Shown here piece by piece: positions 13,501 to 29,546 of a stretch of DNA of 64,000 nucleotides (positions are counted from its first letter, which is position 1; each line of letters opens with the position of its first letter). A program made the position numbers and the translations under genes. The notes beneath the pieces were generated by a model. It worked only from the letters and a program-made list of their open reading frames with translations, did no database searches and was not told the origin of the DNA. This DNA comes from Thermodesulfobacteriaceae bacterium (lineage in GTDB: Bacteria > Desulfobacterota > Thermodesulfobacteria > Thermodesulfobacteriales > Thermodesulfatatoraceae): NCBI GenBank assembly GCA_015494065.1, contig WGCA01000025.1, positions 4,396 to 68,395 of the forward strand, written 5' to 3'.

Positions 13501-14645
13501 AGTTCTATCTTGAGGGGAAGCGCCATTAAAAAGAGTTTGACCCCTTCCTTTTCAGCTTCCGAAATCTCCCTTTGCGGGGCCGGCATCTCCATGCGGGACC
13601 TGGGATAGACCAGGGTTACCTCCGCCCCCAGACGCAGGAGAGAGCGCGCCACGTCCACCGCGGTGTAACCCCCTCCCATAACCAGCACTTTGCGCCCGAC
13701 TTCAGGCCTTTCTCCCTCCTGAAGTCTGTAGAGGAGTTCGAGCCCGGAAACCGCCTTTTCTTCCCCTGGCACCTCGTGGTCCCGGCACCGGGCAGCGCCC
13801 ACCGCAAGAAATACGGCCTCAAAGCCCTGATCAAAGAGATCTTTGAGGGTGAAGTCTTTCCCCCAGCGTTTTCCCGGCTTAAAAGTTATGCCCAAATCGA
13901 GGATCCCCTGAATTTCCCGTCGCAAGATATCTTTCGAAAGCTTGAAATCGGGAATAGCCCAGCGGGGCATACCCCCGGGTTCTGAACGAGCCTCAAAAAT
14001 GGTCACCTCATGGCCTTTAAGACGCAGATAATAAGCAGCGGTGAGCCCGGCAGGCCCCGCCCCCACGATGGCCACCTTTTTGCCGGTGGATGGCGCCACT
14101 TCCGGGCGGTAACCGTGTTCAAGCCCCCAATCCGCCACAAAACGCTTGAGATCATTGATGGCTACCGGTACGTCCACTAGGGCCCTACGGCAACGGGGCT
14201 CACAGAAACGTGGACACACCCTACCTACCAGCGCCGGCAACGGCAATTTTTCTTTAATCAAATCAAGGGCCGCCCGAAATTCGCCCCGCGCGATAAAGGC
14301 AATGTACCCCTGAATATTGAGTCCCCCCGGGCAGGGGACACTGCAGGGGGCCTTACAGTCACCGAAGTGGTTCGCCACCAGGCTCTCTAACTTGGCGCGC
14401 CTGGCCTTTTTGACCGCCTCAGTATCGGTAAAGACCTTAAGCCCTTCCTGAACCGGGGTGGCACAAGCCCTTAAGAGACCTTTGCCTTCCACCTCCACCA
14501 GGCACATCCCGCAGGGGACCGGCGGCTCAGAAACCCCCGGCATATAACAGAGGGTGGGGACTTCCACCCCGTTTTCCCGCAAAACCTCAAGGACCGTTTG
14601 GCCTTCCCTTGCGGTTACTTCTTGGCCATTGACCCAGATTTTCAT
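10557..14645 (-). CDS. fdhA: Selenocysteine-containing formate dehydrogenase catalytic subunit fused to a [2Fe-2S] and GltD/SfrB-like FAD-NAD(P)H module (1362 aa including U818)
   Basis: Track ORFs 12192..14645 and 10557..12017 are in the same frame (4089 nt = 1363 codons). The 174 nt between them has no stop. The junction reads NVDNPARV-TGA-HAPSVAGLAATFGSG, the conserved Cys/Sec-His active site. Domains seen: Fer2 (LCYMPG..CGMC), GltD (VAIVGAGPAGLTAAYYL), 2x CxxCxxCxxxC, CPYCGTGC and the molybdopterin domains. Confidence 0.85.
12162..12180 (-). promoter_or_regulatory. SECIS-like hairpin downstream of the fdhA UGA
   Basis: Minus strand: UGA, 11 nt, then GGUCGCA-GGGCU-UGCGGCC (7-bp stem, 5-nt loop). 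The 11-nt spacing matches the E. coli fdhF SECIS upper stem as I recall it. Confidence 0.55.
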
Positions 14646-14715: not shown

Positions 14716-15612
14716 CTAGAGTTCAAGCCAGGATTCAGAAAAGATGGTCTTCCCGAGCAGGACCCGGGCGGTCTTATAGATCTCGAGTTCTTTAGGGGAA
14801 AGAGTCTTGGGATCCGGCTCGTCTCCGTCCATGATATCGTGGACCAGCTTCACCCAGTCAGGGTGCTTGCCTTTGGCGATCTCGACCAGTTCTTGGTCAT
14901 AGACGTTTAAAATGGCGGAATAAATCCCGTATTTCATAAGCATCATGAGGTAGACCCGGTCTAAATAGGGACGCAGGTGCTTGGGAACGCCGTTAGAAAC
15001 GTTAGAAAGACCAATGGTGCTTTTGGCCCCGGGGGCGATATCCTGGAGCATGGCCAGAAATTCCAACCCGGCCAAAATCTGTTCCGCCCCCAGGGTAATA
15101 GGGGTAGCGATCGGGTCGATCCAGATCTTTTCGTTGGGGATACCGGCCTCGTTCAAGGCCATCACCAGATCCACCGCCATGGCCGCCCGCTCGTTGGCGT
15201 CCCGCGGCATCCCCTCAGGCCCCCACAAAAGGGCCACCACGTCACAGCCGGTCTCCGCAGCCACCGGGATCAATTTTTCCATCCTTTCGGGCTGGGCCGA
15301 AATGGAGTTCATCAAAACGGCACTGGGGTCTTTGGCGGCTTTGATCCCGGCGATCATAGCTTCAGGGTTGGTGGTATCCAAAGATATAGGGGTATCCACC
15401 ACTTCCTGGACCGTCTTTACGATCCAGGCCGCCAGCTCCGGTCCGTCCTTCTTGGCGGGACCGATATTGAGATCCAAATAATCAGCCCCGAGCTCCGTTT
15501 CTTCTTTGGCCATCTTCTGAATAGGCTCGGGGTTCCTTTCTTTCATAGCCGGCCCGATGGTCTTAGACATAATATTGATGGACTCTGCTATACAAACCAC
15601 CTTGTCACTCAT
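14716..15612 (-). CDS. acsE: Methyl-THF:corrinoid/iron-sulfur protein methyltransferase
   Basis: Pterin-binding-domain protein: ESINIMSKTIGPAMKERN...GADYLDLNIGP...ISLDTTN. Located in the acs cluster. Confidence 0.9.
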   Translation of the reverse strand: MSDKVVCIAESINIMSKTIGPAMKERNPEPIQKMAKEETELGADYLDLNIGPAKKDGPELAAWIVKTVQEVVDTPISLDTTNPEAMIAGIKAAKDPSAVLMNSISAQPERMEKLIPVAAETGCDVVALLWGPEGMPRDANERAAMAVDLVMALNEAGIPNEKIWIDPIATPITLGAEQILAGLEFLAMLQDIAPGAKSTIGLSNVSNGVPKHLRPYLDRVYLMMLMKYGIYSAILNVYDQELVEIAKGKHPDWVKLVHDIMDGDEPDPKTLSPKELEIYKTARVLLGKTIFSESWLEL

Positions 15613-15643: not shown

Positions 15644-16996
15644 CTAGGCCGCCTTCCATTCCTTTAAAAAGGAGGGCAACCCACTGGCTTCACGCGGACC
15701 GATGATGATCTCCCAGTCCGGCAACTCTTCTTCAAGCTCCCCTTTGATGGAAGCCAGGTATCCCGGAATAATGAGTTTGCGGTGCTTGACCTTTTCCGCG
15801 ATACCGCTCTTTTTGACAAACTCAGCGATGGTGTCTGCGCCAAACTTACCTGCCGCCCAGGCCGTGAGCACGGAAAGGCCTTCGGTGTCTTTGATCAAAA
15901 GCCAGGTAGGGACCCGGCTCCCTTCAATTTCACCGGACACGATAAAATAAGTGAGGGCAAAATTGCAAGTAATACAAACAGGGGAGTTTTCATCCGGCCC
16001 GTTGATGGGATAAATGCCCTCTTCCACCACCAAAGGCCGCTGCGGGTCGGTAAATATATTCATCCGCTCCACCATGAGCGGATAAAGGAGGTCCCCGCGG
16101 AAATCTGAGAGGATGATCATCCCGGCGTATTTGGCCACCAAGACCGAGGCGATCATGTACTCCACCACGATGTTTTCAGTATACCGGTAGGGAAAAGTAA
16201 TACTCGGGAACCCAAAGGGCTTAAACCGCTTTTTGATGGCCGCCCGGCGCATAATCACCTGGTCTTCATAAAGCTCCCGTACCCCGCGTGGGCTCGTGTC
16301 CAAGACGAGATCTTTTAAACCCTCCTTCATCAGCTCCTCGGAGATGCGGGCCGTCTCCGCCAGGGAATCCCCTTTAACCGCCAGGGGAAAACCCGTCTCT
16401 TTCGCCAGGGCCGCCATCTCCTTGTAATTGTCCATGGTGGCTGCGTAAAGCAGGGCCTTGTGCTCCCCACACTCCTTAGCCCCGGCTGCCAGGACGTCTT
16501 TCTTATCACTCATAAGTACCAGGACCGCCTCCGGGGCCTTCTCCCGCACGGTTTTCACCAAAGAGGCAAAGGTTTCCGGTTCCCCTTTGGTGTCTTCTAT
16601 CGCGATCACCTCTGGTTCAAGTTTGACCCCTACCCTCTCCCAGCGAAATTTCTTAAATTTGGCCAGGCGATCCTCCACTTCAGCCCCGTCCATCTCGGTG
16701 GAAAGGCGCAGGCCTATGCCCGGGGGGTGCTCAAAGCGTTTTTCGTGGCGAAAAAGGACCGTCTCCCCGCCTATTTCAAGGATGTGGTCTCCGCTGCCCA
16801 GTTTCACCGTCCGGATGGGCGGAGCCGAGGCCTCCGCGATCTTTTCCTTGGCTTCCTCAGAGACGTAAGGACAGGCCCCGATATCCGCCTGCCCTGCCGC
16901 CACCTTCATAGCAAAGGCTAGACACGTGGGAAACCCGCATTCTTTACAGTTCTTCTTAGGGAGCATCCCTAGGATTTGAATTCCCGTAAGACCCAT
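15644..16996 (-). CDS. acsC: Corrinoid iron-sulfur protein large subunit
   Basis: N-terminal [4Fe-4S] motif CKECGFPTCLAFAMKV...GACP followed by TIM-barrel and B12-binding regions. 450 aa. Confidence 0.9.
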   Translation of the reverse strand: MGLTGIQILGMLPKKNCKECGFPTCLAFAMKVAAGQADIGACPYVSEEAKEKIAEASAPPIRTVKLGSGDHILEIGGETVLFRHEKRFEHPPGIGLRLSTEMDGAEVEDRLAKFKKFRWERVGVKLEPEVIAIEDTKGEPETFASLVKTVREKAPEAVLVLMSDKKDVLAAGAKECGEHKALLYAATMDNYKEMAALAKETGFPLAVKGDSLAETARISEELMKEGLKDLVLDTSPRGVRELYEDQVIMRRAAIKKRFKPFGFPSITFPYRYTENIVVEYMIASVLVAKYAGMIILSDFRGDLLYPLMVERMNIFTDPQRPLVVEEGIYPINGPDENSPVCITCNFALTYFIVSGEIEGSRVPTWLLIKDTEGLSVLTAWAAGKFGADTIAEFVKKSGIAEKVKHRKLIIPGYLASIKGELEEELPDWEIIIGPREASGLPSFLKEWKAA

Positions 16997-17029: not shown

Positions 17030-19252
17030 CTACATGAGCGGCGGAAGTTCTTTCACCGGGTGATTCACCTTCTCAATCCACTCCCGCACTTCATCTTCCG
17101 TATTGGCCACGGTTTCGTCAGCAATTTTGTCTATCAGGTCCGGGACCCCCAGTTCTTCCGCCCGAGCCTTGAGCTTATCCTTCAACTCTTCCTTCAACAT
17201 CTTGGGCATCCACACCACCCGCTTGAGGCCCCCCTCGGCCAGGAGGAACTTCCGCGAGGTGATGTAATGCTTGGAGACCCCCATAAACCCCGGGGTCACC
17301 TGCCCACCACCTACCATACCCGCCATAGTGGTGAACTTCATTCCCGTAGGCGTAAGGCCCAGGTAGTCACGGTTGACGATCATGATCCCGTTACAGGTGG
17401 GAAGTACCGCCGCGATACACTCAAAGCAACCGCAGGCGGTCATGGGGTCTACCAGGATACTGTAAAGACTTACCCGCTCCACCTTACCCCGGGAGGCCTG
17501 TTTTACAAACTCATTAATCCCCGTAAACTGGCCGAGGGTCTCGTCTATCACTTCCCCTTTTTCGATGGGCTGGTTAGGCCCGGTGGGGTTGATCTCATAA
17601 CAGGCCTTACCGTCAAGCCAGTTGTACGCTCCGCACATCCCTATCCGCTCAGGGGTGATGACGCAGACGTGGCTTGGGGCAAAGCTCTGACAGAGGGTGC
17701 AGGAATAATAAACGTCTACCTGTTCGTCGGTAAGCCCCGCAATCCGGGCGTCTCGGCGGGCGTATACTTCTTTGGCCAGCTCCAGGATCTCCTTGACCTT
17801 ATCTTCTTCGGTGTAAATGGTCACCTGACACTTATCCACGATGGCGCCAAATTCCTGCCGCAGTTTGGCGTAGAGGATCTCCCCGATATGGCGGAAGAGG
17901 AAGCCCTTTTCCACCGCCGCCTTACTGATCCGAAGCCACATGATGTTGCGCTGACCCACGTGCATGATCCCCTGGGCGTAGTTGATCAGATGGTGGAACT
18001 GCCGCTCAAGGATGGCCTCGAAGTCTTCCTGCATATTGGCCCCCGCCACTTCTACCACCACGGCGAAAGGGAGCCGGTAAGGAGGCCCTTCAAGCCCCAG
18101 TTTTTCCACTTCGTTAATCTCCGGCCCGATAACCTGGATCTTACCGTCTTCTACCTCGTCCAAGGGTTTAGAAAGCAGGAGCTCCACCGCCGGGGTCCGG
18201 CCACCTCCACACTCAAGGTAGAGATCATCCTTGCGCACCCGCTCTCCCTCAAAAGCCGGGGCGTAAGCCACCGGGATGTTGAGTTTGACCGCGGTGACTT
18301 TAAGCCCTCGCACCTCAAGGGCCCGGTCTACCATCTCGTCGTAAGGAACTTTGGAAACTACGTGCTCGTAGGTACACACCCCAAAGGGCTTGATTTCCGG
18401 AATATCCCAGTCAGAAATGGTGGGAAAGCCCCAGTTAATGGCCCCCGCCGCGTTGGCGTACCACTCGTCGGAAACCGGCCCGAAGGCCAAAACGAAGGCA
18501 AAAGTCCGGTCCTTATTGTAGAGGAGATTGCCCATATAATCGCCAGGCTTTATGCCACCAAAGGCCATGGCCACCCGGCAAGCAAAACCGATGGCAAAAA
18601 CCACCGAGGAGGTATCCGGCCCAAAGGGGATCAGACGGGTAGGCCAGCCTAGCTGGACCCCAAGTTCTTTGAGTTGCTCCGCCATCCGCACCCCGTTGGT
18701 GTCCGAGTGCATGAAGACGTAGAGGTTTTTCTCAAGGAGCTCCTGGGCAATCTTTTGCGCGATCTCTTTTTCCGGCGGGGCCCCTAAACAGGCGGCAAAA
18801 CCAGGGGCCGTGCCGTCCACGAACTCCACCCCTCTTTTCCGGAAGATCACGTCGTCAGCCGCCCCGAGCCAGATGTTGCCGTTTACCGGCTCCTCAGTCT
18901 TGGTGTAAAAATCAGGGTCTTCTAGGTAGCGGATGGCCTCGATAATCTCTTCGGCAAAGAAGGTAGCCATCCCCGCGTCCAGGGCCGGCCCCAGGTAGGG
19001 CAGCCACAGGTGTTCTGAAGGCTCAGGGGGTAGTAATTTCTTGGCCTCCTGCAAGACTTCTTCACAATCCCCCAGCTTTTTCACCGGGTAGCCGAGCATG
19101 GCGTAGATAATGGGGAGATAATAGGCGGTGTTCGGGAACCCTATCTCCTGGTCCTTACCGAACTTCTTAACAGCCTCTTCGTATTTTTCTAACGCCTGCT
19201 CGACGATTTTGTGCGCTCCCCTGATAGCGGCACTGGCAATAATCTTTGACAT
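17030..19252 (-). CDS. acsB: Acetyl-CoA synthase (A-cluster subunit)
   Basis: 740 aa from the ATG at 19252 (GGAGGAAACCGG precedes it). Begins MSKIIASAAIRGAHK.... Shows the A-cluster Cys region SCTLCQSFAPSHVCVITPERIGMCGA and CGCFE. Confidence 0.93.
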   Translation of the reverse strand: MSKIIASAAIRGAHKIVEQALEKYEEAVKKFGKDQEIGFPNTAYYLPIIYAMLGYPVKKLGDCEEVLQEAKKLLPPEPSEHLWLPYLGPALDAGMATFFAEEIIEAIRYLEDPDFYTKTEEPVNGNIWLGAADDVIFRKRGVEFVDGTAPGFAACLGAPPEKEIAQKIAQELLEKNLYVFMHSDTNGVRMAEQLKELGVQLGWPTRLIPFGPDTSSVVFAIGFACRVAMAFGGIKPGDYMGNLLYNKDRTFAFVLAFGPVSDEWYANAAGAINWGFPTISDWDIPEIKPFGVCTYEHVVSKVPYDEMVDRALEVRGLKVTAVKLNIPVAYAPAFEGERVRKDDLYLECGGGRTPAVELLLSKPLDEVEDGKIQVIGPEINEVEKLGLEGPPYRLPFAVVVEVAGANMQEDFEAILERQFHHLINYAQGIMHVGQRNIMWLRISKAAVEKGFLFRHIGEILYAKLRQEFGAIVDKCQVTIYTEEDKVKEILELAKEVYARRDARIAGLTDEQVDVYYSCTLCQSFAPSHVCVITPERIGMCGAYNWLDGKACYEINPTGPNQPIEKGEVIDETLGQFTGINEFVKQASRGKVERVSLYSILVDPMTACGCFECIAAVLPTCNGIMIVNRDYLGLTPTGMKFTTMAGMVGGGQVTPGFMGVSKHYITSRKFLLAEGGLKRVVWMPKMLKEELKDKLKARAEELGVPDLIDKIADETVANTEDEVREWIEKVNHPVKELPPLM

Positions 19253-19277
19253 CCGGTTTCCTCCTTTAATTACAAAC

Positions 19278-21914
19278 TTATTGGGCCATAAGGCCATCGA
19301 TGACCCTTTTGGTCACCTCGATGGCCTTGGGGTGTCTCATGATCAAGAAGTCTCCCCCGGCCAAGAGCAGAGCCAGGGCGGTAATCGCTTCCAGGGCTAT
19401 TCCCCGAACTTCCTGGTCCCCCAGCATGTCATCGCTCGGAAGCCCTGCCTCTTTGGTCTTCCACACCTCACGCCCCACGTTTATTACGAAGGGCACCTGA
19501 AGCTTTTCGTCCTGAGCGTAAAGAGCCGCAAGTCTTATCCGTTCCATCACGGAATAAGTATATTCTAAACCGTAACCCAGCGCTCCCACCGAAGGGTCCA
19601 TGGCGATCTTATCTAGCGGGACCCCTACGTTTTCAAGCAGGATATTGAGCTGTTTGGCCAGGTTAACGTCAATGGGGCTTGAGGCAATGAGGGAATAGCC
19701 GTAACCCATGGCCGTGGCCCCCAGGGCCCGGTGGTTGGTATCCACTACCGGCCCGATCATGACGTTTTTGGCCCCAAGCACGTTGGCCACCTCACGCAAA
19801 ACCTCTACGTCCTTTTCCGCCGAACCAGAACCCCAGATCACCAAGGGCACATCCACCGCCTTGGCCACCTTTTCCACTACTTTGGCCGCATGCTCCGGGC
19901 CGAGATCGAGAAAATTCGGGTCCGTACCAACCAGGTAGACGTTTATGGCCTCCGCCCCGTAAACCTCAACACACTTCTTGGCCCAGGCCCCCGGATCATC
20001 AAACACATCGGCAAAATATTTGGCCAGCGCCTCCGGCCAATCCTCAGGCTTGACGTCCAAGACCTCCATGGCCACGTGGGGCGGATTCTTCATCTCGCCC
20101 TCAAAGAGGTGGAAGGGGAGTACGTTAGTGCCACCGATGGTGATGGCCTTTTCCCCCTCTCCGATGGTGACTTCTCGGATATAGGCCGTCCCAGGTTCTT
20201 TATAAACGTCTTCGGGTATGCCAGCGGCCCTTTCAGAGACCGGACGGTATTCCTTGGAAAGTTCGGCAAAGACCAAAATATCGGCCACTTCCGGGGCCTT
20301 AACCTCCGCCGCTGGCCTTTCCTCAACCGCAGGCTTTTCTTCTTCCGGTTTCTTTTCCGCCCGGGCCGCCTTTAATTCTTTGACCTTTTCAAGCCCCTTT
20401 ACCGCCTCCGTCTTCTGCGGATAGAGCTCCAAGACCTTCTGGTAAGCCGCTTCGGCCCCGTCCAGGTCTTCTTCTTTAAGTTTTTTCTCAGCTTCTTTCA
20501 GTAACTCCTCAACCAAACGTTCTTTTTCGATCTCAGCTAAGGCACTTTTAGCGATTTCGTTTTCTGCCTCGAGCTCAAGGACTTGACGGTAAAGGGCCTC
20601 GGCTTTGGCAAGCTCTCCCGCCTCCCGGGCCGCCTTGGCGGCAGAGAGGAGATCGGCCACCTTCTGAGCCCGCTCTTCCTCCTCTTTGGAGACCGCCGGG
20701 GCTTCGGGTTTGACCACCGGCCTTTCCTCTGGCTTTATCTCAGGCGGTACCGGCCTCTCAGCGGGCCCTCCCAGCAAGGCCCGTTCAAGGCTCGCCAGAC
20801 CTTCATGGAGGAGGTTGATGCCGTCCCTTAAGGCCTCCATACTGCTGCGTAGGGACCCGAAGATCTCCTTCAGGGCCTCAGCCGGCACCTCCACCTTAGG
20901 CGGGGCCTCAGGGACCTCTTCTTCCACCTCCGGTCTTTCGGGAATAATCTCTGGTGCCGGCCGCGGTACCTCGACCTTTACCTCCTCTGCTAGAGGCCGC
21001 GGGTGGAGGCCCGCCCGTTTTACGATCTCAGGCACCGCCTCTTCCCACTCGATGGCCATAATGTGTACCCCGGCAATACCAGGGATCTCCCGCACCTGCT
21101 CGATGATCTCCACGGCGATCTGGATTCCCTCTTCCCTTTTGTCCTTGGCGTCCTTGAGTCGTTTTAAAATCTCATCAGGCACATCCAGTCCGGGGACAAA
21201 ATATTTCATGTAGCGGGCCATCCCGAAGGACTTGGGCGGGGTGATCCCTGCCAGGATATAGACCTTCTCGGTAAGGCCGAGGTCTCTTGCCATCTCCATA
21301 AATTTGCGGAACCGCTCAAGGTTATAAACGATCTGGGTCTGGATAAATTGGGCCCCTGCCGCCACTTTCTTGGCCAGCCGGTGTACCCGAAACTCAAAGG
21401 GATCCGCAAAGGGGTTGGCCGCCGCCCCCAAGAAAAATTCCACGGTCTTTCCCTTTATCTCTTCCCCGCACTGGAACCTCTTCTCATCCCGCATCCGCCG
21501 GACCATGTCCAGCAGCTGGATGGAATCCAGGTCAAAAACCCCTTTGGCCTCGGGATGATTACCAAACTTTTGGTGGTCCCCCGTAAGGCAAAGGAGGTTT
21601 TTGATCCCCAACGCCGCCGCGCCTAAGAGATCAGCCTGAATAGCAATCCGGTTCCGGTCCCGACAGGTCATCTGGATGACCGGCTCCACCCCTTCCTGCA
21701 TCACCAAAACCCCAGAAGCAATGGAAGACATCCTTACGATGGCCGTCTGACAATCGGTGATATTGGCGGCGTCCACAAAGCCCCGGATCAAGCGGGCCTT
21801 CTGACGGACTACGTCGCCGTCGGCACTCTTGGGTGGACCAATCTCACAGGTAACGGCAAAGTGCCCCTCACGAAGCACCCTTTCCAGATGGCTGCGATAT
21901 TTTTCGTTACTCAC
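19278..21914 (-). CDS. metF/acsD: Fusion protein: methylene-THF reductase (MetF, aa 1-~305) + ~264-aa Pro/Glu/Lys-rich and helical linker + corrinoid Fe-S protein small subunit (AcsD, aa ~570-878)
   Basis: One uninterrupted 878-aa ORF with a GTG start after GGAGG. The MetF part has TCEIGPPK, QMTCRDRN, LCLTGDH, FIQTQIVYN. The AcsD part has IREVTIGEGEKAITIGGTNVLPFHLFEG, VPLVIWGSGSAEKD, MDPSVGALGYGLEYTYS. Confidence 0.85.
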   Translation of the reverse strand: MSNEKYRSHLERVLREGHFAVTCEIGPPKSADGDVVRQKARLIRGFVDAANITDCQTAIVRMSSIASGVLVMQEGVEPVIQMTCRDRNRIAIQADLLGAAALGIKNLLCLTGDHQKFGNHPEAKGVFDLDSIQLLDMVRRMRDEKRFQCGEEIKGKTVEFFLGAAANPFADPFEFRVHRLAKKVAAGAQFIQTQIVYNLERFRKFMEMARDLGLTEKVYILAGITPPKSFGMARYMKYFVPGLDVPDEILKRLKDAKDKREEGIQIAVEIIEQVREIPGIAGVHIMAIEWEEAVPEIVKRAGLHPRPLAEEVKVEVPRPAPEIIPERPEVEEEVPEAPPKVEVPAEALKEIFGSLRSSMEALRDGINLLHEGLASLERALLGGPAERPVPPEIKPEERPVVKPEAPAVSKEEEERAQKVADLLSAAKAAREAGELAKAEALYRQVLELEAENEIAKSALAEIEKERLVEELLKEAEKKLKEEDLDGAEAAYQKVLELYPQKTEAVKGLEKVKELKAARAEKKPEEEKPAVEERPAAEVKAPEVADILVFAELSKEYRPVSERAAGIPEDVYKEPGTAYIREVTIGEGEKAITIGGTNVLPFHLFEGEMKNPPHVAMEVLDVKPEDWPEALAKYFADVFDDPGAWAKKCVEVYGAEAINVYLVGTDPNFLDLGPEHAAKVVEKVAKAVDVPLVIWGSGSAEKDVEVLREVANVLGAKNVMIGPVVDTNHRALGATAMGYGYSLIASSPIDVNLAKQLNILLENVGVPLDKIAMDPSVGALGYGLEYTYSVMERIRLAALYAQDEKLQVPFVINVGREVWKTKEAGLPSDDMLGDQEVRGIALEAITALALLLAGGDFLIMRHPKAIEVTKRVIDGLMAQ

Positions 21915-21941
21915 CTCTTCCTCCTCAAGCCGCCGTTTTAT

Positions 21942-22622
21942 CTATTTTTGCGAATTCATCTGTAGATCAGGCCTCTTACGCTCCCGCGGGCCACCATGGC
22001 CAGCCGGGATCCAGTTTTTGGCCGGAAAAATCTGGGAAAGCTTTTCCAGCTCCCCGCGGGCCTTAAGCCGCTCGTAAATCTGGTGCCATACACAGGGCAC
22101 CTCCGGCCTGATCTCACACTTTCCGTTCTGGGAACCCCCGCAAGGCCCATTCAAAAGATTCTTGGCACAGCGGGCGATGGGACAGAGTCCTCCGGTGAAA
22201 TCGATGATGCAATCCCCACAGCCCCGACACTTCTCTTCCCATTCCCCTAAAGCAGGGTTGGCCCCGTAAAAACTGGTATCCACCCCGGGATAGATCTTTA
22301 AATCCGGAAAAAGATCAGCCGCCAGATTAACCCCCACTCCGCAGGCCAGGGACACCACCGCTTCTACCTTTTCCTTGAGTTCCCCAAGCGGGGTCAGATA
22401 TTCCGGATCACACTGCCGCACAAAGGTGTCCTCAACGGTTTTAAGTGGGCGTCCTTGCCTTTTACGCGCCAGCCGCAAGGCCGCCGCCAAAATCTCCACC
22501 TCGCGGTCCCCACCCGCGGAACAAATGGCCACGCAGCCCCGGCAACCAATGACGGCGATGCGTTCAAAGGGCTCTATCATCTGAAGGATTCTCTTAATGG
22601 GTTTTCTTTCTGCAATGATCAT
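21942..22622 (-). CDS. metV: Methylene-THF reductase small Fe-S/Zn subunit MetV
   Basis: 226 aa, Cys-rich: VIGCRGCVAICSAGG, CRGCGDCIIDFTGGLCPIARC, NGPCGG. Immediately upstream of metF. Confidence 0.8.
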   Translation of the reverse strand: MIIAERKPIKRILQMIEPFERIAVIGCRGCVAICSAGGDREVEILAAALRLARKRQGRPLKTVEDTFVRQCDPEYLTPLGELKEKVEAVVSLACGVGVNLAADLFPDLKIYPGVDTSFYGANPALGEWEEKCRGCGDCIIDFTGGLCPIARCAKNLLNGPCGGSQNGKCEIRPEVPCVWHQIYERLKARGELEKLSQIFPAKNWIPAGHGGPRERKRPDLQMNSQK

Positions 22623-23014
22623 GAGGAAGTCTCCCCTTTTGCCGAAATCTCAAGCAAGGTTTCAAAGGTCCTCTTGGCCGCCTCCACCAAGGCCCCTGTA
22701 TCAAGACGGGGGACAAAGGCCATCTGTACCCGCTCAGGCGAAAGCCCAATCTCCTCAAGGATTTTCCGGGCCGCCTCTACCCTCTTTTCTGCCCGCAGAC
22801 TGCCGGTGTTGTTATGACAGCTTCCCTTCTCGCAACCCGCCACCAGCACCGCCCCGGCGTCTTCCTCCAAGGCCCGTAAAATGTCTACCACCTCGATCCG
22901 CCCGGAGCAGGGAAACCGCTTAATCACCACCTCTGCGGGGATGTCCGCTACGTCCTGAGCGGTGGCCTCGTTGGTATAATGGCAACAGAGAATAGCTAAC
23001 TTTAGCTGAGACAT
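22619..23014 (-). CDS. mvhD: MvhD/FlpD-family protein (Cys form)
   Basis: 131 aa: ILCCHYT...FPCSGRIEVVDILRALEEDAGAVLVAGCEKGSCHNNTG. Confidence 0.8.
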   Translation of the reverse strand: MSQLKLAILCCHYTNEATAQDVADIPAEVVIKRFPCSGRIEVVDILRALEEDAGAVLVAGCEKGSCHNNTGSLRAEKRVEAARKILEEIGLSPERVQMAFVPRLDTGALVEAAKRTFETLLEISAKGETSS

Positions 23015-23019
23015 CTACC

Positions 23020-23577
23020 CTACCCCCCTACCACCATGACCGCCATTTCAGGCGCGGTTTTCAGTTCGATAGCCCGGGCGGGACATTCCACCACGCAAAT
23101 CCCACAGGCCTGACACTTTTCAGGATCGATTACGGCGTAACCCTCTGAAACAATGCGCGGTGCCCCGAAGGGGCAGGTGCGCACACAGGTAAGACAAGCG
23201 ATACACTTACCCGCCTCCACCCGGGCCAAACGCCCGGTTTCAAAGCGCAGTTCAAGGGCCCGGGCCGGATCTTCCTGCGCAACCAGGCCTTTGAGCGCCT
23301 TAATCACTTCCATGGGTTTTACGTCCATGGGACAGACCGGCACACAGGAGCCACAGCCGGAACATTTCCAGATGGTGTCTCCGGCAAGCAACCGCTCCTT
23401 AAGCCCCAATAAAACCCCGTGCACTATGACCCGGGGGTCAAAATCTTCGGCCACTTTTTCTACCGGGCACACCCCGGAGCAGGCCCCACAACGGAAACAC
23501 TGGGCCAGCGTCTCAGGGGCCCCGGTGTTTATCAATTCCCCCGCCAGATGGGGATCGCGACCCTTAAGCTCTATCAT
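23020..23577 (-). CDS. Iron-sulfur protein: HdrC-like N-terminal half fused to a 2x[4Fe-4S] ferredoxin half
   Basis: CFRCGACSGVCP...CSGCGSCVPVCP (HdrC-like spacing), then CIACLTCVRTCP...CQACGICVVECP. Confidence 0.7.
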   Translation of the reverse strand: MIELKGRDPHLAGELINTGAPETLAQCFRCGACSGVCPVEKVAEDFDPRVIVHGVLLGLKERLLAGDTIWKCSGCGSCVPVCPMDVKPMEVIKALKGLVAQEDPARALELRFETGRLARVEAGKCIACLTCVRTCPFGAPRIVSEGYAVIDPEKCQACGICVVECPARAIELKTAPEMAVMVVGG

Positions 23578-23580
23578 CTC

Positions 23581-24339
23581 CTACTCCTTTGCCTTGGGTT
23601 GCCAAAGCTTTCCCTGTTTTTCCACCTGCCCTCTTTTGGAAAGAGCCTCCAAAATAGGCACGATATCTTCCTGGGTTGCCCCTGTTTTTTGAAGCAACGT
23701 CTCAATAGAGACGGGCCCCTTGCCCAAGAGGGCCTTGACCTCGGCCTCAAGAAGTTCTTTTTTGATAAGGGGCACGAGCTTTTCCTCCACCCGCCGGGAT
23801 ATACCTTCGGGACTGTAATCACCGGCCCTTTTTAATTCCCGGGCTAAGTTCCCGTAAGCCGCCCGGAAACGACTTTTAGCGGTAAGCTGGCGTGCTGCCG
23901 CAAGCCGCAGCTTGATCGTCTCCCAATCAAGCCCTTCCGGCTCGCCGAGGGGGCCGAGCTTTTTGATGGTCTCCGTAAAGTCCGTGACGATCTTTACAAA
24001 AAGCGGGGCCTCCGCCGCAGAGGCCCAGTCAATCCGGAAACGCTCCACCTTCAAACCTACTAACTCCAGGATCCTCCTGGTTACCTCCGCCATCAAAAGG
24101 GCTTCGTAATTACCAGACTGGTAATGACACTCGCCCAGATGTCACCCCCCAACCAGCACTCCGTCCGCACCGACGTAAAAGGCCTCCAGGATAAAACGTG
24201 GATCAATACGGCCCGTACACATCACCCGAATGACCCGGTTGTTGGGGGGATACTGGTAACGGGCCACCCCCGCCGAATCCGCCGCTGCGTAACAGCACCA
24301 GTGACAAAAAAAGCTCAAAATCTTGGGCTCAAAACTCAT
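23581..24339 (-). CDS. mvhD: Selenocysteine-containing MvhD/FlpD-family protein with a C-terminal winged-helix-like extension (252 aa including U66)
   Basis: Track ORFs 24142..24339 and 23581..24096 are in frame (759 nt). The junction is [31 protein letters not shown], where the paralog has AGCEKGSCHN. The tail [36 protein letters not shown] looks like a wHTH. Confidence 0.8.
24109..24125 (-). promoter_or_regulatory. SECIS-like hairpin downstream of the mvhD UGA
   Basis: Minus strand: UGA, 16 nt, then AUUACC-AGUCU-GGUAAU (perfect inverted repeat ATTACCAGTCTGGTAAT). Confidence 0.45.
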
Positions 24340-24351
24340 AAACCCACCCCT

Positions 24352-27300
24352 TTAAGCCGCTTCTTCACCGGCTTTTTCTTTTTCAAGTTCTTTTTCCACA
24401 AAGGCCCCGAAGGCTTCTATCTGCGCCAAAATGGCCTCATCTGTGAAACCACCCATGCTGATGGCCAACACCGGACAGTGGGAGGCACAGATACCACAAC
24501 CTTTACACGATGCAGTAATCGTCTGGGCCTTTTTGCGTTTACCTACCTTGACCATCTCTATCGCCCCAAAGGGGCAAAGCTCGGCGCAGATGCCGCAGCC
24601 GATGCACTTCTTCTGATCCACCCGGGAGACAATGGGCGCCACTTCCACAAACCCTTTGGCCAAGGGGATCGCGGCCTTGGCCGCCGCCGCCCGGGCCTGA
24701 GCCAAGGTCTCGTCCAAGGGCTTTGGACCGTGGGCCAGCCCGCAGACGTAAACCCCTTCCACCGGGAGCTCAACCGGCATGAGTTTCACGTGCGCCTCAA
24801 GGAAAAAGCCGTCTCCCGTAAGTGGAGCCTTGATAACCTTTGAAAGCTCTTCGTTTTCTCCAGGCGCAATCCCCACCGAAAGGACTAGAAGATCGGCGGG
24901 AATCAGGAGTTCCTCTCCGAGCAGGGCGTCGTAAACCTTAACAAACTGGGCCTTGCCCTTTTGTACTAACTCCGGCTTGGCTTCCGGTTTATAGCGCAGA
25001 AAAATGACCCCGGAGTTGCGCGCCTCCCGGTAGGCGTCTTCGGAAAAACCGTAGGTGCGCATATCACGAAAGAGGATATAGACGTCCTTTTTGGGATATC
25101 TCTTCTTAATACGCAGGGCGTTTTTTACCGCCTGCTGACAGCAGAGCTTGCTGCAATAGTTTAAGTCGTCTCCCCGGGAACCCACACACTGGATCATCAC
25201 CACGCTACGGGCCCGGGCAAGCTTTCCGGCCTTGCCCTTAAGCTCCGCCTCAAGATCAAGCTGGGTGATAACCCGCTCGTTGGCCCCGAGGCCATAACGG
25301 TCCGGCCGGTGCTCTCTTCCACCGGTAGCCAGAATCACCACCCCGTGGTTAATCACCTCCGAGCCCTCTTCCTTCCTCAAAGTGGAGGTGAAATTTCCTA
25401 CGTAACCCGAAACGTTTTCCACCGTGGTGCCAGTAAAGACCTTTATCCTGGGGTGCTCTTCCACCTTGGTGATCAGGTCCTTTAAGATTTTTTGTGGGTC
25501 TTCCCCGGAGAGAAGACCGGTGACCCGACGCAGGTTCCCCCCAAGCTCGGCCTCTTTTTCCACCAGATAGACCTCAAAGCCTTGCTCCGCCACCGAAAGG
25601 GCCGCCTGAAGCCCTGCCGCCCCTCCGCCAATTACCAGGGCCGAAGGGGTCACTGAAACCTTTTGGAGCTCAAGCGGGGTGAGCCGTTTGGCCTTGGCCA
25701 CCGCCATCCGTACTTGATCTTTGGCCTTCTGGGTGGCGGCTTCGGGATCCTCGGCGTGTACCCAGGCACACTGGTCCCGGATATTGGCCATCTCAATGAG
25801 GGCCGGGTTAAGCCCCGCCTCCCTCAAAGTCTCCTGAAAGAGGGGCTCATGGGTCCTGGGACTGCAGGCCGCGATCACCACGCGGTTAAGCCGATTTTCT
25901 TTTATCTTTTTGACCAGTTCGTTTAAGGTGTCCTGAGAACAGGAATATAAGACGTCTTCGGTATAGACCACTCCAGGCAGGGTCGCCGCGTAGCGGGCTA
26001 CCTCTTTGACATCCACCACGCCGGCAATATTCACCCCACAGTGACAGACAAAGACCCCGATCCTCGCTTCTTCCCTTTCAAGCTCTTCGTCTTCGGGCGG
26101 AAATTCCTTGTGGACCGCGTCTTGCCCCCTGACCTCGGCCAAAAGTTCCGAACATTTGGCCGCCACTCCTTGGGCTTGGACCACGCTTTCTGGAATATCC
26201 TTGGGCCCCTGGAAGGCTCCGGCCACAAAAATCCCGGGCACGTTGGTCTCAAGCGGGGTGGCCACTTTGGTCTGGGCAAAACCGTAGTGGTTAAGCTCAA
26301 CCCCCAGGCGTTTGGCGAGTTCTTCGGCCCCCGCCGGGGCGTCAAGCCCCACCGAAAGGACCACCATATCGTAAAAATCCCGGTGCGTTCTTCCGTCTTC
26401 GGTTACGTAAGTCAGGGCCAGCTTGCGCCCTACCTGATCCACCCTAGGCACCCGGGCGTAGATCGTCCGGAAACCATACTTTTCCACTGCCCGGTTAAAG
26501 GCCTCGTCAAAACCCTTGCCCTGAGTCCTGATATCCATGAAGAAAAGGTCTATCTCAGCCTCTGGTAGGTGCTCTTTCACCACCGAGGCCTCTTTCATGG
26601 CGTACATGCAGCAGACCGAAGAACAATAACCGTTGCCGCAAGTGACATCCCGGGAACCTACGCATTGGAGAAAGGCGATGCGTTGGGGATGAGTAAAATC
26701 AGAGGGCCTTAGCACTTCCCCTTCCGTAGGCCCAGAGGCACAGGTCATCCTTTCCAGCTCAAGGCTGGTAAGGACGTCCGGGTACTTGCCGTAGCCGTAT
26801 TTCTCCAAGACTTCCTCCGGCACCCGGCCAAAGCCCAAGGCCAAAACCACCGCCCCCACGTGAAGCTCCCTCTCTTCCGGCTGCTGATCAAAAAAGATGG
26901 CGTTTGGCCCGCACACGTTGGCGCAGAGCTGGCAGCTCTCATGCTGAAGCCTCAAGCACTCTTTTTCGTCAAGGTAGTAAACCGTAGGGACAGCCTGGGC
27001 GTAATCTATCCGGGCCGCCTTGGTGAAGGTGAGACGCTCGTTATACTCGTCCACCACCTCTTTAGGACAATAGGTCATGCACATCCCACAGGAAGTACAC
27101 TTGTTTGGGTCTACGTAACGGGGTTTGACGTGAATTTTGGCCTTGAAATTACCCGGCTTGCCGGATAACTCCTTGAGCTCGGCCAAGGTTATAATCTCAA
27201 TATTGGGAGACCGACCGGCCTCCACCAGCTTGGGGGCCAGGATTCAGATACTACAATCGTTAGTGGGAAAAGTCTTATCGAGCTGGGCCATCACGCCCCC

Positions 27301-27500: not shown

Positions 27501-29546
27501 TTAAGCCGCTTCTTCCTCCTCTTCCACCCGCACGTGGGTGGGGCCAAAACAGCCAAGCCCGTGGAAGGGCGAAGTGACCTTGGGACTTTCAAGAGCCCGG
27601 CGCATGGCCATGTCAAAGAGGATTCGCGGCTTGGGCTTATCAATCCCCAGGTTTTTGCGCTTCTCATTGATGATATCAATCATCACTGAGGCAAAATCCT
27701 TGGCCGAACGGGCCACCAGCCAATGGGCCCCAAATATGTTCTTGAACTCGTGAAAGAGATAATCCGTGGCCACCTGGCTTTTTTCCGTGGGAAAATCAGG
27801 CCCAAAAACCACGCAAGCCCCACTGCCTACAAAGTAATTACCGATAGCTACCGCCTTCTCACTCATCCACTGCGGAGCACAACCGATAGCCGGAAGCTCG
27901 TCAATGTCCTCCCCCAATCCTCCGGTGTTGACCATTTCGGTAAGCGCGATCAGGATGCGGCTGTTGTCCACGCAGGAGCCCATATGTAGCACCGGCGGGC
28001 ACCCTACCGCCTCAAGGACTTCTCTCAGGCTATCACCGGCAAGACTTGCCGCCTCAGGGGAGAGGAGCCCGGCCCGGCCAAGGCCCGTGGCCGCACACCC
28101 CGTAGCCACTACCAGTACGTTGTTTGCAATGAGTTCTTTGGCCAGTTCTACGTGTACTTCGTCAAAGACCCGGAAGTTGTCACAACCCACGATGGCCGCC
28201 ACCCCTAGGATGCGCCCGTTGATAATATTTTCGTTCAAGGGCTTGTAAGAGGCCCGGAAACGTCCTCCAAGGATATAAAGGATGGTTTCGTGGCTGAAAC
28301 CCGCCACCACGTCCATCTTGCTCTTGGGGATATAAACCCGGCTTTTATCCCGCTTGGGGAAACGGGAAATGGCTTCCCGCAGGATCTTCTTGGCACTTTC
28401 CACCGGGTGGTGATGGTCGAAGGGGATGTGCATGGCCCCTTCGATTTCGGCCTTGTCACTCACGGTGATCACCGCGGTGTGGAAGGCCTTAGCCACCGTG
28501 GCCACGTTTTGCATAATACACTGCACGTCCACGATCATAGCCTCAACGGCCCCGGTAGCCAGGGCCATTTCCTGCTGGACAAAGCTTCCGGCGATAGGAA
28601 TCCCCCGGCGCATAAGGACTTCGTTTCCCGTGCAGCAGATGCCAGCGAGATTAACCCCCTTGGCCCCGACCTTCTGCGCCTCCTTGATGATCTCCGGATC
28701 CTGGGCCGCCATGGCCAGTGCCTCAGCCACCTCGGGCTCGTGGCCGTGCACGGTGACGTTTACCATATCTTCTTTAAGGACCCCCAGGTTCACCGTGGCC
28801 CTGATGGGCACCGGGGTCCCGAAGAGGATGTCCTGAAGCTCCGTGGCCAGCATGGAACCACCCCAGCCATCGGCAAGGGCCGTACGCACCGAAGCCTTCA
28901 GGAGACTGCGGTAGTCCTGATCCACCCCCACGGAGGTCCGGTGCAAAAGCTCAACCACTTCTCGATCCACCCCGCGGGGCACGACACCAAGCTCCCGCCA
29001 CTTCGCCTGCCGCTTCTCCGGCGCCCGCTTGATAAAGGCAAGCTCCCCGTGCTGCTGGCCGAACTGTTCAAGGGCCTTGACCGCCACTTCTTTGGCCAGT
29101 TCCTTGGTCTCCTTCTTGGGGTCGAGCCCGAAATAATAGGCTACTACCCGTAGCTTGTTTTCGTCTTTGATCTCGAAGTCCTCGGCGTTACCGTGGACCG
29201 TCTCGTAAAAGACCTCTGCGATACCCCGGCCGTGGTCTGAGTGGGCCGAAGAGCCAGCGGCTACCATCCGGCAGAAGTTTCGGGAAGCCACCGTAGCCGC
29301 TGTGGCCCCACAGACCCCGCGCATCTCCTCCACCCCTTCGATGATCTGACAGGGGCCCATGTTACAGACGTGACAGCAGGTACCCCCTTTACCAAATAGG
29401 CAGGGCTTCGTGCCGCGTTTAAAAACCCGTTCCGGCGCCGTGAGCACCTTGCCCTGGATCTGCTCAAGCATTTCCTGGTTGACGGCGCACTGCACCGTAC
29501 ACGAAGGTTTACGCCCCTTAAACCTGGCCCTGGGATCCATCGCCAT
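27501..29546 (-). CDS. cooS: Anaerobic Ni-Fe carbon monoxide dehydrogenase catalytic subunit
   Basis: 681 aa: CLFGKGGTCCHVCNMGPCQI, GVCGATAATVASRNF, SAHSDHGR, GSCVDNSR. In the acs context it is equivalent to AcsA. Confidence 0.93.
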   Translation of the reverse strand: MAMDPRARFKGRKPSCTVQCAVNQEMLEQIQGKVLTAPERVFKRGTKPCLFGKGGTCCHVCNMGPCQIIEGVEEMRGVCGATAATVASRNFCRMVAAGSSAHSDHGRGIAEVFYETVHGNAEDFEIKDENKLRVVAYYFGLDPKKETKELAKEVAVKALEQFGQQHGELAFIKRAPEKRQAKWRELGVVPRGVDREVVELLHRTSVGVDQDYRSLLKASVRTALADGWGGSMLATELQDILFGTPVPIRATVNLGVLKEDMVNVTVHGHEPEVAEALAMAAQDPEIIKEAQKVGAKGVNLAGICCTGNEVLMRRGIPIAGSFVQQEMALATGAVEAMIVDVQCIMQNVATVAKAFHTAVITVSDKAEIEGAMHIPFDHHHPVESAKKILREAISRFPKRDKSRVYIPKSKMDVVAGFSHETILYILGGRFRASYKPLNENIINGRILGVAAIVGCDNFRVFDEVHVELAKELIANNVLVVATGCAATGLGRAGLLSPEAASLAGDSLREVLEAVGCPPVLHMGSCVDNSRILIALTEMVNTGGLGEDIDELPAIGCAPQWMSEKAVAIGNYFVGSGACVVFGPDFPTEKSQVATDYLFHEFKNIFGAHWLVARSAKDFASVMIDIINEKRKNLGIDKPKPRILFDMAMRRALESPKVTSPFHGLGCFGPTHVRVEEEEEAA

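Follow-up and report, generated by a model that had tools for sequence, protein, structure and literature searches.

MetF and AcsD encoded as a single polypeptide in Wood-Ljungdahl gene clusters of Thermodesulfobacteriota

A single reading frame for MetF and AcsD

The stretch of DNA analysed here (the window) comprises 64,000 nucleotides of contig WGCA01000025.1 from a Thermodesulfobacteriaceae bacterium, and carries on its minus strand a complete Wood-Ljungdahl operon in the order fhs-folD-acsA-hdrA-like-mvhD(Sec)-HdrC-like ferredoxin-mvhD-metV-metF::acsD-acsB-acsC-acsE-fdh(Sec). In this operon, one gene, metF::acsD, encodes both MetF, the methylenetetrahydrofolate (methylene-THF) reductase (MTHFR), and AcsD, the small subunit of the corrinoid iron-sulfur protein (CoFeSP). 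A single open reading frame (ORF) of 878 codons runs without internal stop along the minus strand at 19278-21914, from a GTG start (21914-21912) to a TAA stop (19280-19278), and its product contains, in this order, a MetF TIM barrel, a linker of 264 residues (aa 306-569) and AcsD (Table 1). The first-pass annotation of the window had proposed such a stop-free frame with both domains complete, without stating its strand, and this was borne out. The motifs TCEIGPPK, QMTCRDRN, LCLTGDH, FIQTQIVYN, VIWGSGSAEKD and MDPSVGALGYGLEYTYS were all found in the minus-strand translation. A plus-strand reading of 19278-21914 was rejected, its translation being full of stops. No second metF or acsD was detectable by tblastn within the 64-kb window, in agreement with the earlier statement that the cluster holds no other acsD.

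The N-terminal module matched the Pfam MTHFR family (PF02219) at aa 10-302, covering profile positions 2-287 of 287 (E 1.6e-42, 146.2 bits, cut-off 24). AlphaFold2 modelled it with high confidence as a TIM barrel at aa 8-300, to which Foldseek assigned TM-scores of 0.81 with Thermus MTHFR (7TH5_B) and 0.77-0.84 with E. coli MetF chains. The segments CEIGPPK, LTGD and QTQ align with LEFFPPR, LRGD and ITQ of human MTHFR, with the Thermus enzyme also in the alignment, and Glu24, Asp113 and Gln194 are invariant across 61 homologues. We take the E. coli MetF counterparts of these residues to be E28, D120 and Q183; in MTHFR the catalytic Glu acts as general acid, the Asp lies near flavin N1 and the Gln binds folate. 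Against the model of the bifunctional homocysteine methyltransferase/MTHFR (NF006396) the MetF half scored 235 bits. We regard the module as probably an active methylene-THF reductase of the acetogen type.

Scores below the equivalog cut-offs of TIGR00676 and TIGR00677 could instead be taken as a sign that the MetF-like module has lost its reductase function and now assists CoFeSP in regulation or pterin binding, the catalysis being left to a stand-alone metF elsewhere; such low scores are, however, typical of acetogen-type MetF. Extra metF genes, as this explanation supposes, have been reported in relatives (PMC4911364, PMC8780430, PMC7117923). Nevertheless, the three residues named above are invariant, as is most of the barrel; the Pfam profile is matched over its full length, and metV is the next gene upstream, an arrangement shared with acetogen MetFV systems. 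We therefore regard the loss of reductase activity as highly improbable.

The C-terminal module matched CdhD (PF03599) from aa 581 (E 1.8e-44) and, at aa 576-876, the NCBIfam delta-subunit model PRK04452.1-2 (NF003376; positions 11-312 of 313, 378.7 bits, cut-off 280). The Moorella-type model WLP_AcsD (NF040759) gave 305 bits, under its cut-off of 430. In agreement with the two complete domains first proposed, both halves therefore have full-length matches above the cut-offs (PF02219 and PRK04452.1-2). AlphaFold2 placed the AcsD TIM barrel at aa 560-878 with high confidence, and the predicted local distance difference test (pLDDT) of both barrels was about 85-97. The best structural match was 2H9A_B (Foldseek TM-score 0.94, root-mean-square deviation 1.8 Å, 44% identity), with TM-scores of 0.93 to 9FZY_E and 0.89 to 4DJD_D, and aa 569-878 align to the entire 310-aa CoFeSP small subunit (E 1.5e-82). 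The module thus resembles AcsD of Carboxydothermus hydrogenoformans (2H9A_B/2YCL_B) and Moorella thermoacetica (4DJD_D) in fold and in having acsB, acsC and acsE as neighbours, and differs from them in forming the C-terminal part of a chain of 878 aa, with a conserved, fusion-specific motif containing an invariant Arg directly upstream. Among solved structures, no chain covers both the MetF and the AcsD halves.

Table 1. Coordinates of the fusion gene, its parts and neighbouring genes in the window.
Feature	Position	Strand	Details
metF::acsD coding sequence	19278..21914	minus	GTG start, TAA stop; 878 aa, 96.7 kDa, pI 5.07
Shine-Dalgarno site GAGGAGG	21920..21926	minus	5 nt 5' of GTG; read from sequence
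MetF/MTHFR TIM-barrel domain	21000..21914	minus	aa 1-305; Pfam, AlphaFold2, Foldseek
Pro/Glu-rich disordered segment 1	20883..20999	minus	aa 306-344; AlphaFold2 low confidence (from aa 303)
Conserved amphipathic heptad helix	20772..20882	minus	aa 345-381; alignment, AlphaFold2
Pro-rich disordered segment 2	20688..20771	minus	aa 382-409; AlphaFold2 low confidence
TPR-like helical repeat module	20358..20687	minus	aa 410-519; pLDDT 81-94, Pfam
Lys/Glu/Pro-rich disordered segment 3	20241..20357	minus	aa 520-558; AlphaFold2 low confidence
Core of pre-AcsD motif	20208..20240	minus	aa 559-569, ...PVSE-R562-AAGIPED
AcsD/CoFeSP small-subunit TIM barrel	19281..20207	minus	aa 570-878; Pfam, NCBIfam, AlphaFold2, Foldseek
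acsA/cooS (Ni-CODH)	27501..29546	minus	
hdrA-like flavoprotein/Fe-S protein	24352..27225	minus	957 aa
Second mvhD-like gene	23581..24339	minus	252 codons; in-frame TGA at codon 66, probable selenocysteine
HdrC-like poly-ferredoxin	23020..23577	minus	185 aa; profile matches
mvhD (FlpD)	22619..23014	minus	Profile matches
metV (DUF5981)	21942..22622	minus	27 nt upstream of fusion
acsB (ACS)	17030..19252	minus	ATG 19252, AGGAGG site, 740 aa; 25 nt past fusion stop
acsC, CoFeSP large subunit	15644..16996	minus	Expected AcsD partner
acsE, methyl-THF:CoFeSP methyltransferase	14716..15612	minus	

Distribution, origin and gene neighbourhood

The identical 878-aa product was found on four assembled contigs, two of which, in GCA_027052035.1 (a metagenome-assembled genome at NCBI) and ERZ23495249 (an ENA metagenome assembly), come from different projects. 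A protein search with a limit of E<=1e-10 gave 969 homologues; PF02219 and PF03599 occur together in all 120 of the matches listed, which range from 783 to 1106 aa, and the nearest named relative among these is Thermodesulfatator atlanticus, with 98% identity. When one genome per GTDB species was scanned, at least 582 relatives were obtained, the best 80 of which were used for locus comparison. An uninterrupted ORF with MetF and AcsD signatures is present in 67 of these 80 loci; 10 loci are broken off at a contig end or, in L046, by a run of N, and in the remaining three metF and acsD are neighbouring but separate genes. The fusion ranges over Thermodesulfobacteria, Dissulfuribacterales and Desulfobulbia, including the cable bacteria, and is widespread, phylum-wide, in Thermodesulfobacteriota. 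The initial impression of a unique architecture was therefore wrong in scope, the fusion being phylum-wide and already present in databases.

Sequence divergence was compared as the proportions of non-synonymous (pN) and synonymous (pS) differences, of which the latter are saturated (pS 0.62-0.88), so that the contrast between the two is usable and a proper dN/dS ratio is not. In the linker, pN is 0.18 and pS 0.88 against the relative L001, and 0.18-0.37 and 0.67-0.88, respectively, over close relatives; in the MetF and AcsD domains the values are 0.03-0.13 and 0.62-0.77. Both halves are under strong purifying selection. Because linker pN is far below pS and the differences in linker length between relatives are all in frame, the frame read here is the one in which the linker is translated. 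An error of sequencing or assembly, for example one that hid a frameshift or stop separating two genes, found no support, since the only broken relatives are those at contig ends or at the N run in L046. With an identical ORF on four contigs, the same architecture in 67 species representatives and a linker that evolves as coding sequence, such an error is effectively refuted, and the worry about a hidden frameshift raised in the first-pass annotation can be dismissed. We are highly confident that the fusion is real and that both of its modules are functional, making it a bifunctional protein.

At 50% identity the fused family shrinks to two full-length clusters and is therefore one compact family, for which reason a search against 50%-identity representatives is unusable for counting fused members. 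Neighbour-joining trees of the two domains, which were not bootstrapped and leave both a single origin and the placement of unfused genomes tentative, group the fused AcsD domains in one clade. The MetF clade of the fusions also holds the MetFs of three unfused Desulfobacterales, and the AcsD domains of two unfused genomes (L058 and L076) fall outside the fused-AcsD clade. A single, compact origin within Thermodesulfobacteriota is thus tentatively suggested, perhaps as one ancient fusion followed by fission or replacement in one lineage. The three Desulfobacterales genomes, which include Ca. Desulfaltia bathyphila, carry metF and acsD as adjacent, unfused genes (L058, 5281-7474; L064, 9887-12073; L076, 9884-12084), and the two are separated by a spacer of about 130-180 nt that does not contain the linker domain.

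Other pairings of Wood-Ljungdahl proteins were found among public proteins, namely AcsB::AcsD (P0224, 1209 aa), AcsD::Ni-CODH (P0164, 1122 aa), MetV::MetF (P0150, 546 aa) and MetV::MetF::MetH (P0195, 1681 aa). Also among the Wood-Ljungdahl fusion proteins in public data are P0260 and P0211, and three further proteins (P0153, P0161 and P0177) consist of AcsD with a C-terminal extension of about 200-450 aa that has no Pfam match. AcsD and MetF are fusion-prone. Like MetF::AcsD, the AcsB::AcsD and AcsD::CODH proteins attach AcsD covalently, by a long linker, to a further protein of the Wood-Ljungdahl pathway; they differ in joining the carbonyl-branch docking partners of CoFeSP, whereas MetF::AcsD joins the last reductase of the methyl branch, and their AcsD domains lie outside the MetF::AcsD clade in the neighbour-joining tree, again unbootstrapped. 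The NF006396 fusions and P0195 share with MetF::AcsD the placement of MTHFR in one chain with a component of a system that consumes methyl-THF (CH3-THF). There, the partner belongs to methionine synthesis, whereas here MTHFR is joined, by a structured linker at least 200 aa long, to the non-catalytic TIM-barrel subunit of the corrinoid protein of the Wood-Ljungdahl pathway.

These comparisons also bear on a near-neutral origin, in which neighbouring operon genes would have joined as a "Rosetta-stone" fusion that brings co-expression and 1:1 stoichiometry only, leaving the modules independent and giving no kinetic or assembly gain. As metF and acsD are adjacent yet separate in L058, L064 and L076, loss of a stop and of the spacer would suffice, and the other pairwise fusions of Wood-Ljungdahl genes in other lineages suggest that fusion in such operons is easy. 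By contrast, the single clade of fused AcsD domains, although taken from an unbootstrapped tree, is consistent with a fusion that has seemingly been kept since a deep ancestor. The linker, considered below, adds further evidence on both sides.

The full operon order of the window recurs in loci of Thermodesulfobacteria and Dissulfuribacterales, and acsB, acsC and acsE lie directly 3' of the fusion, an order repeated in more than 60 related loci. In contrast, loci of Desulfobulbaceae, Desulfocapsa and cable bacteria (among L019-L080, e.g. L072, 6752-18409) have the order folD-acsA-metF::acsD-acsB-(cooC)-acsC-fdh, with no metV, hdrA, mvhD or acsE next to the fusion. For acsB in the window, the start at ATG 19297 given by the mechanical ORF (17030-19297), which would overlap the end of the fusion, was rejected; ATG 19252 has an AGGAGG site and fits public gene calls, and acsB and metF::acsD therefore do not overlap. 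Counts from a scan for promoters and terminators were not clearly above those in shuffled sequence. The strongest minus-strand hairpins lie 3' of fhs and 3' of acsE, none of them around metF::acsD.

Summaries of work on Moorella thermoacetica describe a methylene-THF reductase complex, MetFV-HdrABC-MvhD (PMC10553843, PMC9012536). The present locus resembles it in the MetF TIM barrel, the metV gene adjoining upstream and the hdrA-like, mvhD and HdrC-like genes in the same strand run, and differs from it in three respects: MetF is covalently bound to AcsD, there are two mvhD-like genes, one of them with a probable selenocysteine, and no HdrB (CCG-domain) gene was found among the cluster ORFs scanned. 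Between hdrA and metV, no ORF gave a CCG-domain match that would indicate hdrB, and the only HdrC-like product there is the 185-aa poly-ferredoxin. The second mvhD-like gene (...VGG-U-HLGECHY...) adjoins hdrA and appears in public gene calls as FlpD fragments of 65 and 170 aa. A comparable case is found at 10557-14645 of the minus strand, where the ORFs 12192-14645 and 10557-12017 form one frame of 1362 codons with a TGA at codon 818; this TGA (...NPARV-U-HAPSVAGL...) is probably the selenocysteine of the formate dehydrogenase motif. The N-terminal ~680 aa of this frame correspond to a module of 2Fe-2S, GltD/NfnB-like FAD/NAD(P) and 4Fe-4S parts fused to FdhA.

The linker between the modules

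What first appeared to be an empty spacer between the two domains (aa 306-569) contains a conserved helix and a tetratricopeptide repeat (TPR) module. AlphaFold2 was run on the fusion with a 61-sequence alignment and gave a mean pLDDT of 81 and a predicted TM-score (pTM) of 0.47, with disordered segments separating the modules. The helix at aa 345-381 is single and long (pLDDT 57-72), comprises four heptads and aligns without gaps in 61 homologues; positions 351, 352, 355, 359, 362, 366, 373, 376 and 380 are 100% hydrophobic, giving a heptad (a/d) pattern. No Pfam family was matched by aa 306-409, the segment with this helix, when scanned alone. The region aa 410-519, scanned in the same way, matched TPR_19 (27.0 bits, cut-off 25) and TPR_14 (24.8 bits, cut-off 23.5), families for which the match in the whole-protein scan had been sub-threshold (21.1 bits); in the AlphaFold2 model it forms two repeats of paired helices. 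Finally, directly before the barrel lies the pre-AcsD motif, L552...E561-R562-A...P567 (L..E.RP.SE-R-A...P; window 20208-20261), which opens with the end of disordered segment 3 (aa 552-558) and in which Arg562 is invariant and Glu561 more than 90% conserved. Judged by 2H9A_B, this motif is not part of canonical AcsD, and it was not seen at the N-termini of the unfused AcsD proteins of L058 and L076.

Across the 67 fused ORFs the linker measures 201-465 aa (median 287) and is never short. Thermodesulfatator and Thermosulfuriphilus linkers contain two TPRs, and the longer proteins of the Dissulfuribacterales type (~1000-1100 aa) contain more; linkers of Desulfobulbaceae and cable bacteria consist of Ala/Glu/Lys-rich sequence, and no TPR family is given for the Desulfobulbaceae members among the matches listed. 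In the AlphaFold model of a Ca. Electrothrix homologue (P0112), an 84-residue helix (pLDDT ~50-69) occupies the place of the TPRs, and with a pTM of 0.46 the inter-domain geometry is not fixed. Judging from these alignments, the linker appears to be conserved in kind rather than in sequence, with the helix and the Arg motif universal.

This pattern argues against the near-neutral origin described above. A linker of at least 200 aa kept in 67 of 67 species would be unexpected if the fusion were neutral, as would the conservation, over three classes, of a heptad helix without gaps and of a motif with an invariant Arg, and a linker pN far under pS. On the other hand, neither the model of the 878-aa protein nor that of P0112 predicts contacts between the domains, as would be expected of independent modules. 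On balance, we consider a fusion without kinetic or assembly benefit unlikely, though it deserves to be kept in mind.

The three long disordered segments also raise the question of whether the 878-aa chain is a precursor, cleaved in the linker into separate MetF and AcsD proteins, or is accompanied by an AcsD made by internal initiation. Of relevance here is P0148 (402 aa), which lacks MetF and begins with a Met directly before the conserved helix, followed by the helix, a YRPLSERA motif and AcsD. It may be a fragment produced by a contig edge or a gene call, or a natural MetF-less form; in the latter case, the helix would be functionally tied to AcsD. For the protein described here, however, there is no in-frame start with a Shine-Dalgarno site near the AcsD boundary, no sign of a processing site was found, and the conserved folded and helical elements argue for use of the linker in the mature protein. 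Separate products from this gene therefore seem quite improbable.

Possible roles of the fusion

We favour, as the probable reading, a three-module protein of 97 kDa in which a flexible leash holds the enzyme of CH3-THF near the corrinoid protein; that tethering as such is the function of the fusion we put at slightly better than even. The modules would be arranged as "beads on a string". On this proposal, CoFeSP would consist of the AcsD module and AcsC, whose gene lies two positions downstream, and the MetF module would associate with MetV, the product of the adjoining upstream gene, and probably also with the HdrA-like, MvhD and ferredoxin proteins, as in the Moorella complex. From its contour length, a leash of about 105 disordered residues plus the helix and the TPR module could reach tens of nanometres, and would thus keep the corrinoid protein no farther than some tens of nanometres from the producer of CH3-THF (or its consumer, if the pathway runs in reverse). 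AcsE would hand the methyl group to the corrinoid protein, from which acetyl-CoA synthase (ACS) would then take it, and the single chain would fix a 1:1 stoichiometry of MetF and AcsD. The expected gain is proximity coupling and stoichiometric assembly; a sealed channel is not implied, since transfer between the modules still requires CH3-THF and AcsE.

Solved complexes of CoFeSP with the methyltransferase MeTr (4DJD) and of carbon monoxide dehydrogenase (CODH)/ACS with CoFeSP (9FZY) show that CoFeSP works by docking to its partners, and a leash would suit a docking cycle with MeTr and ACS. Fusions of AcsD to its direct partners and of MTHFR to consumers of CH3-THF may likewise be regarded as a precedent for tethering.

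Several points weigh against this proposal. In the AlphaFold model (pTM 0.47) the modules are not in contact, which gives no support to a supercomplex of defined geometry, and the three disordered stretches would be accessible to proteases. As CH3-THF is a free cofactor and AcsE a separate protein, the leash alone channels nothing. Clusters of Desulfobulbaceae and cable bacteria carry the fusion without adjacent metV, hdrA, mvhD and acsE, and a published Desulfobulbus genome is reported to be without any metV (PMC7117923); a supercomplex of Hdr, MetFV and CoFeSP therefore cannot be the universal rationale for the fusion. The three Desulfobacterales genomes with adjacent unfused genes indicate that the fusion is not obligatory. 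Finally, papers on relatives report additional metF genes (PMC4911364, TDIS_0870; PMC8780430). The supercomplex of the methyl and carbonyl branches proposed in the first-pass annotation is thus not supported as stated, given the absence of a fixed geometry and the Desulfobulbaceae-type loci that do not have metV, hdr or acsE; as an interpretation it remains reasonable, at the level of inference.

In a more far-reaching version of the tether, the helix, the spacer (TPR or long helix) and the Arg motif would serve for docking or oligomerisation and would nucleate a megacomplex of HdrA, MvhD, MetV, MetF::AcsD and AcsC with AcsE and CODH/ACS. We hold this to be doubtful. If true, flavin-based electron bifurcation at MetF would be coupled physically and kinetically to corrinoid methylation and acetyl-CoA synthesis, in a Wood-Ljungdahl metabolon specific to Thermodesulfobacteriota, cable bacteria included.

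Each half of the protein is well known by itself, and MTHFR fused to methyl-consuming enzymes is not without precedent (NF006396), so that MetF::AcsD is a combination of known parts, held in databases under the name of one half. At NCBI its name is "acetyl-CoA decarbonylase/synthase complex subunit delta" (ACDS subunit delta), at UniProt "Methylenetetrahydrofolate reductase", and at JGI either of the two. In agreement with the first-pass annotation, which knew of no account of this architecture, we found no description of the MetF::AcsD fusion in full-text searches of the literature, and a prior mention in subscription papers is possible. Genome papers on carriers leave it unmentioned (PMC4911364, PMC7117923, PMC8780430): the fused gene of Thermosulfurimonas dismutans (TDIS_1006) is given simply as MTHFR (PMC4911364), the account of Ca. 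Desulfobulbus rimicarensis lists acsABC and two metF genes with no metV and no acsD (PMC7117923), and that of Dissulfurimicrobium cites only distant metF genes, with the pathway scored as incomplete by KEGG (PMC8780430). Scoring by one KEGG orthology term per gene may accordingly call metF or acsD missing in Thermodesulfobacteriota.

The heptad helix and the E-R motif of the linker constitute uncharacterised conserved sequence features without family assignment. The carriers of the fusion are important autotrophs, comprising vent sulfate reducers, sulfur disproportionators and cable bacteria, and in cultivable thermophiles (Thermodesulfatator, Thermosulfurimonas and Thermosulfuriphilus) it offers a natural handle on the complexes involved. 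By linking the last enzyme of the methyl branch covalently to the corrinoid protein, the fusion predicts a physical organisation of both branches of these organisms' Wood-Ljungdahl pathway.

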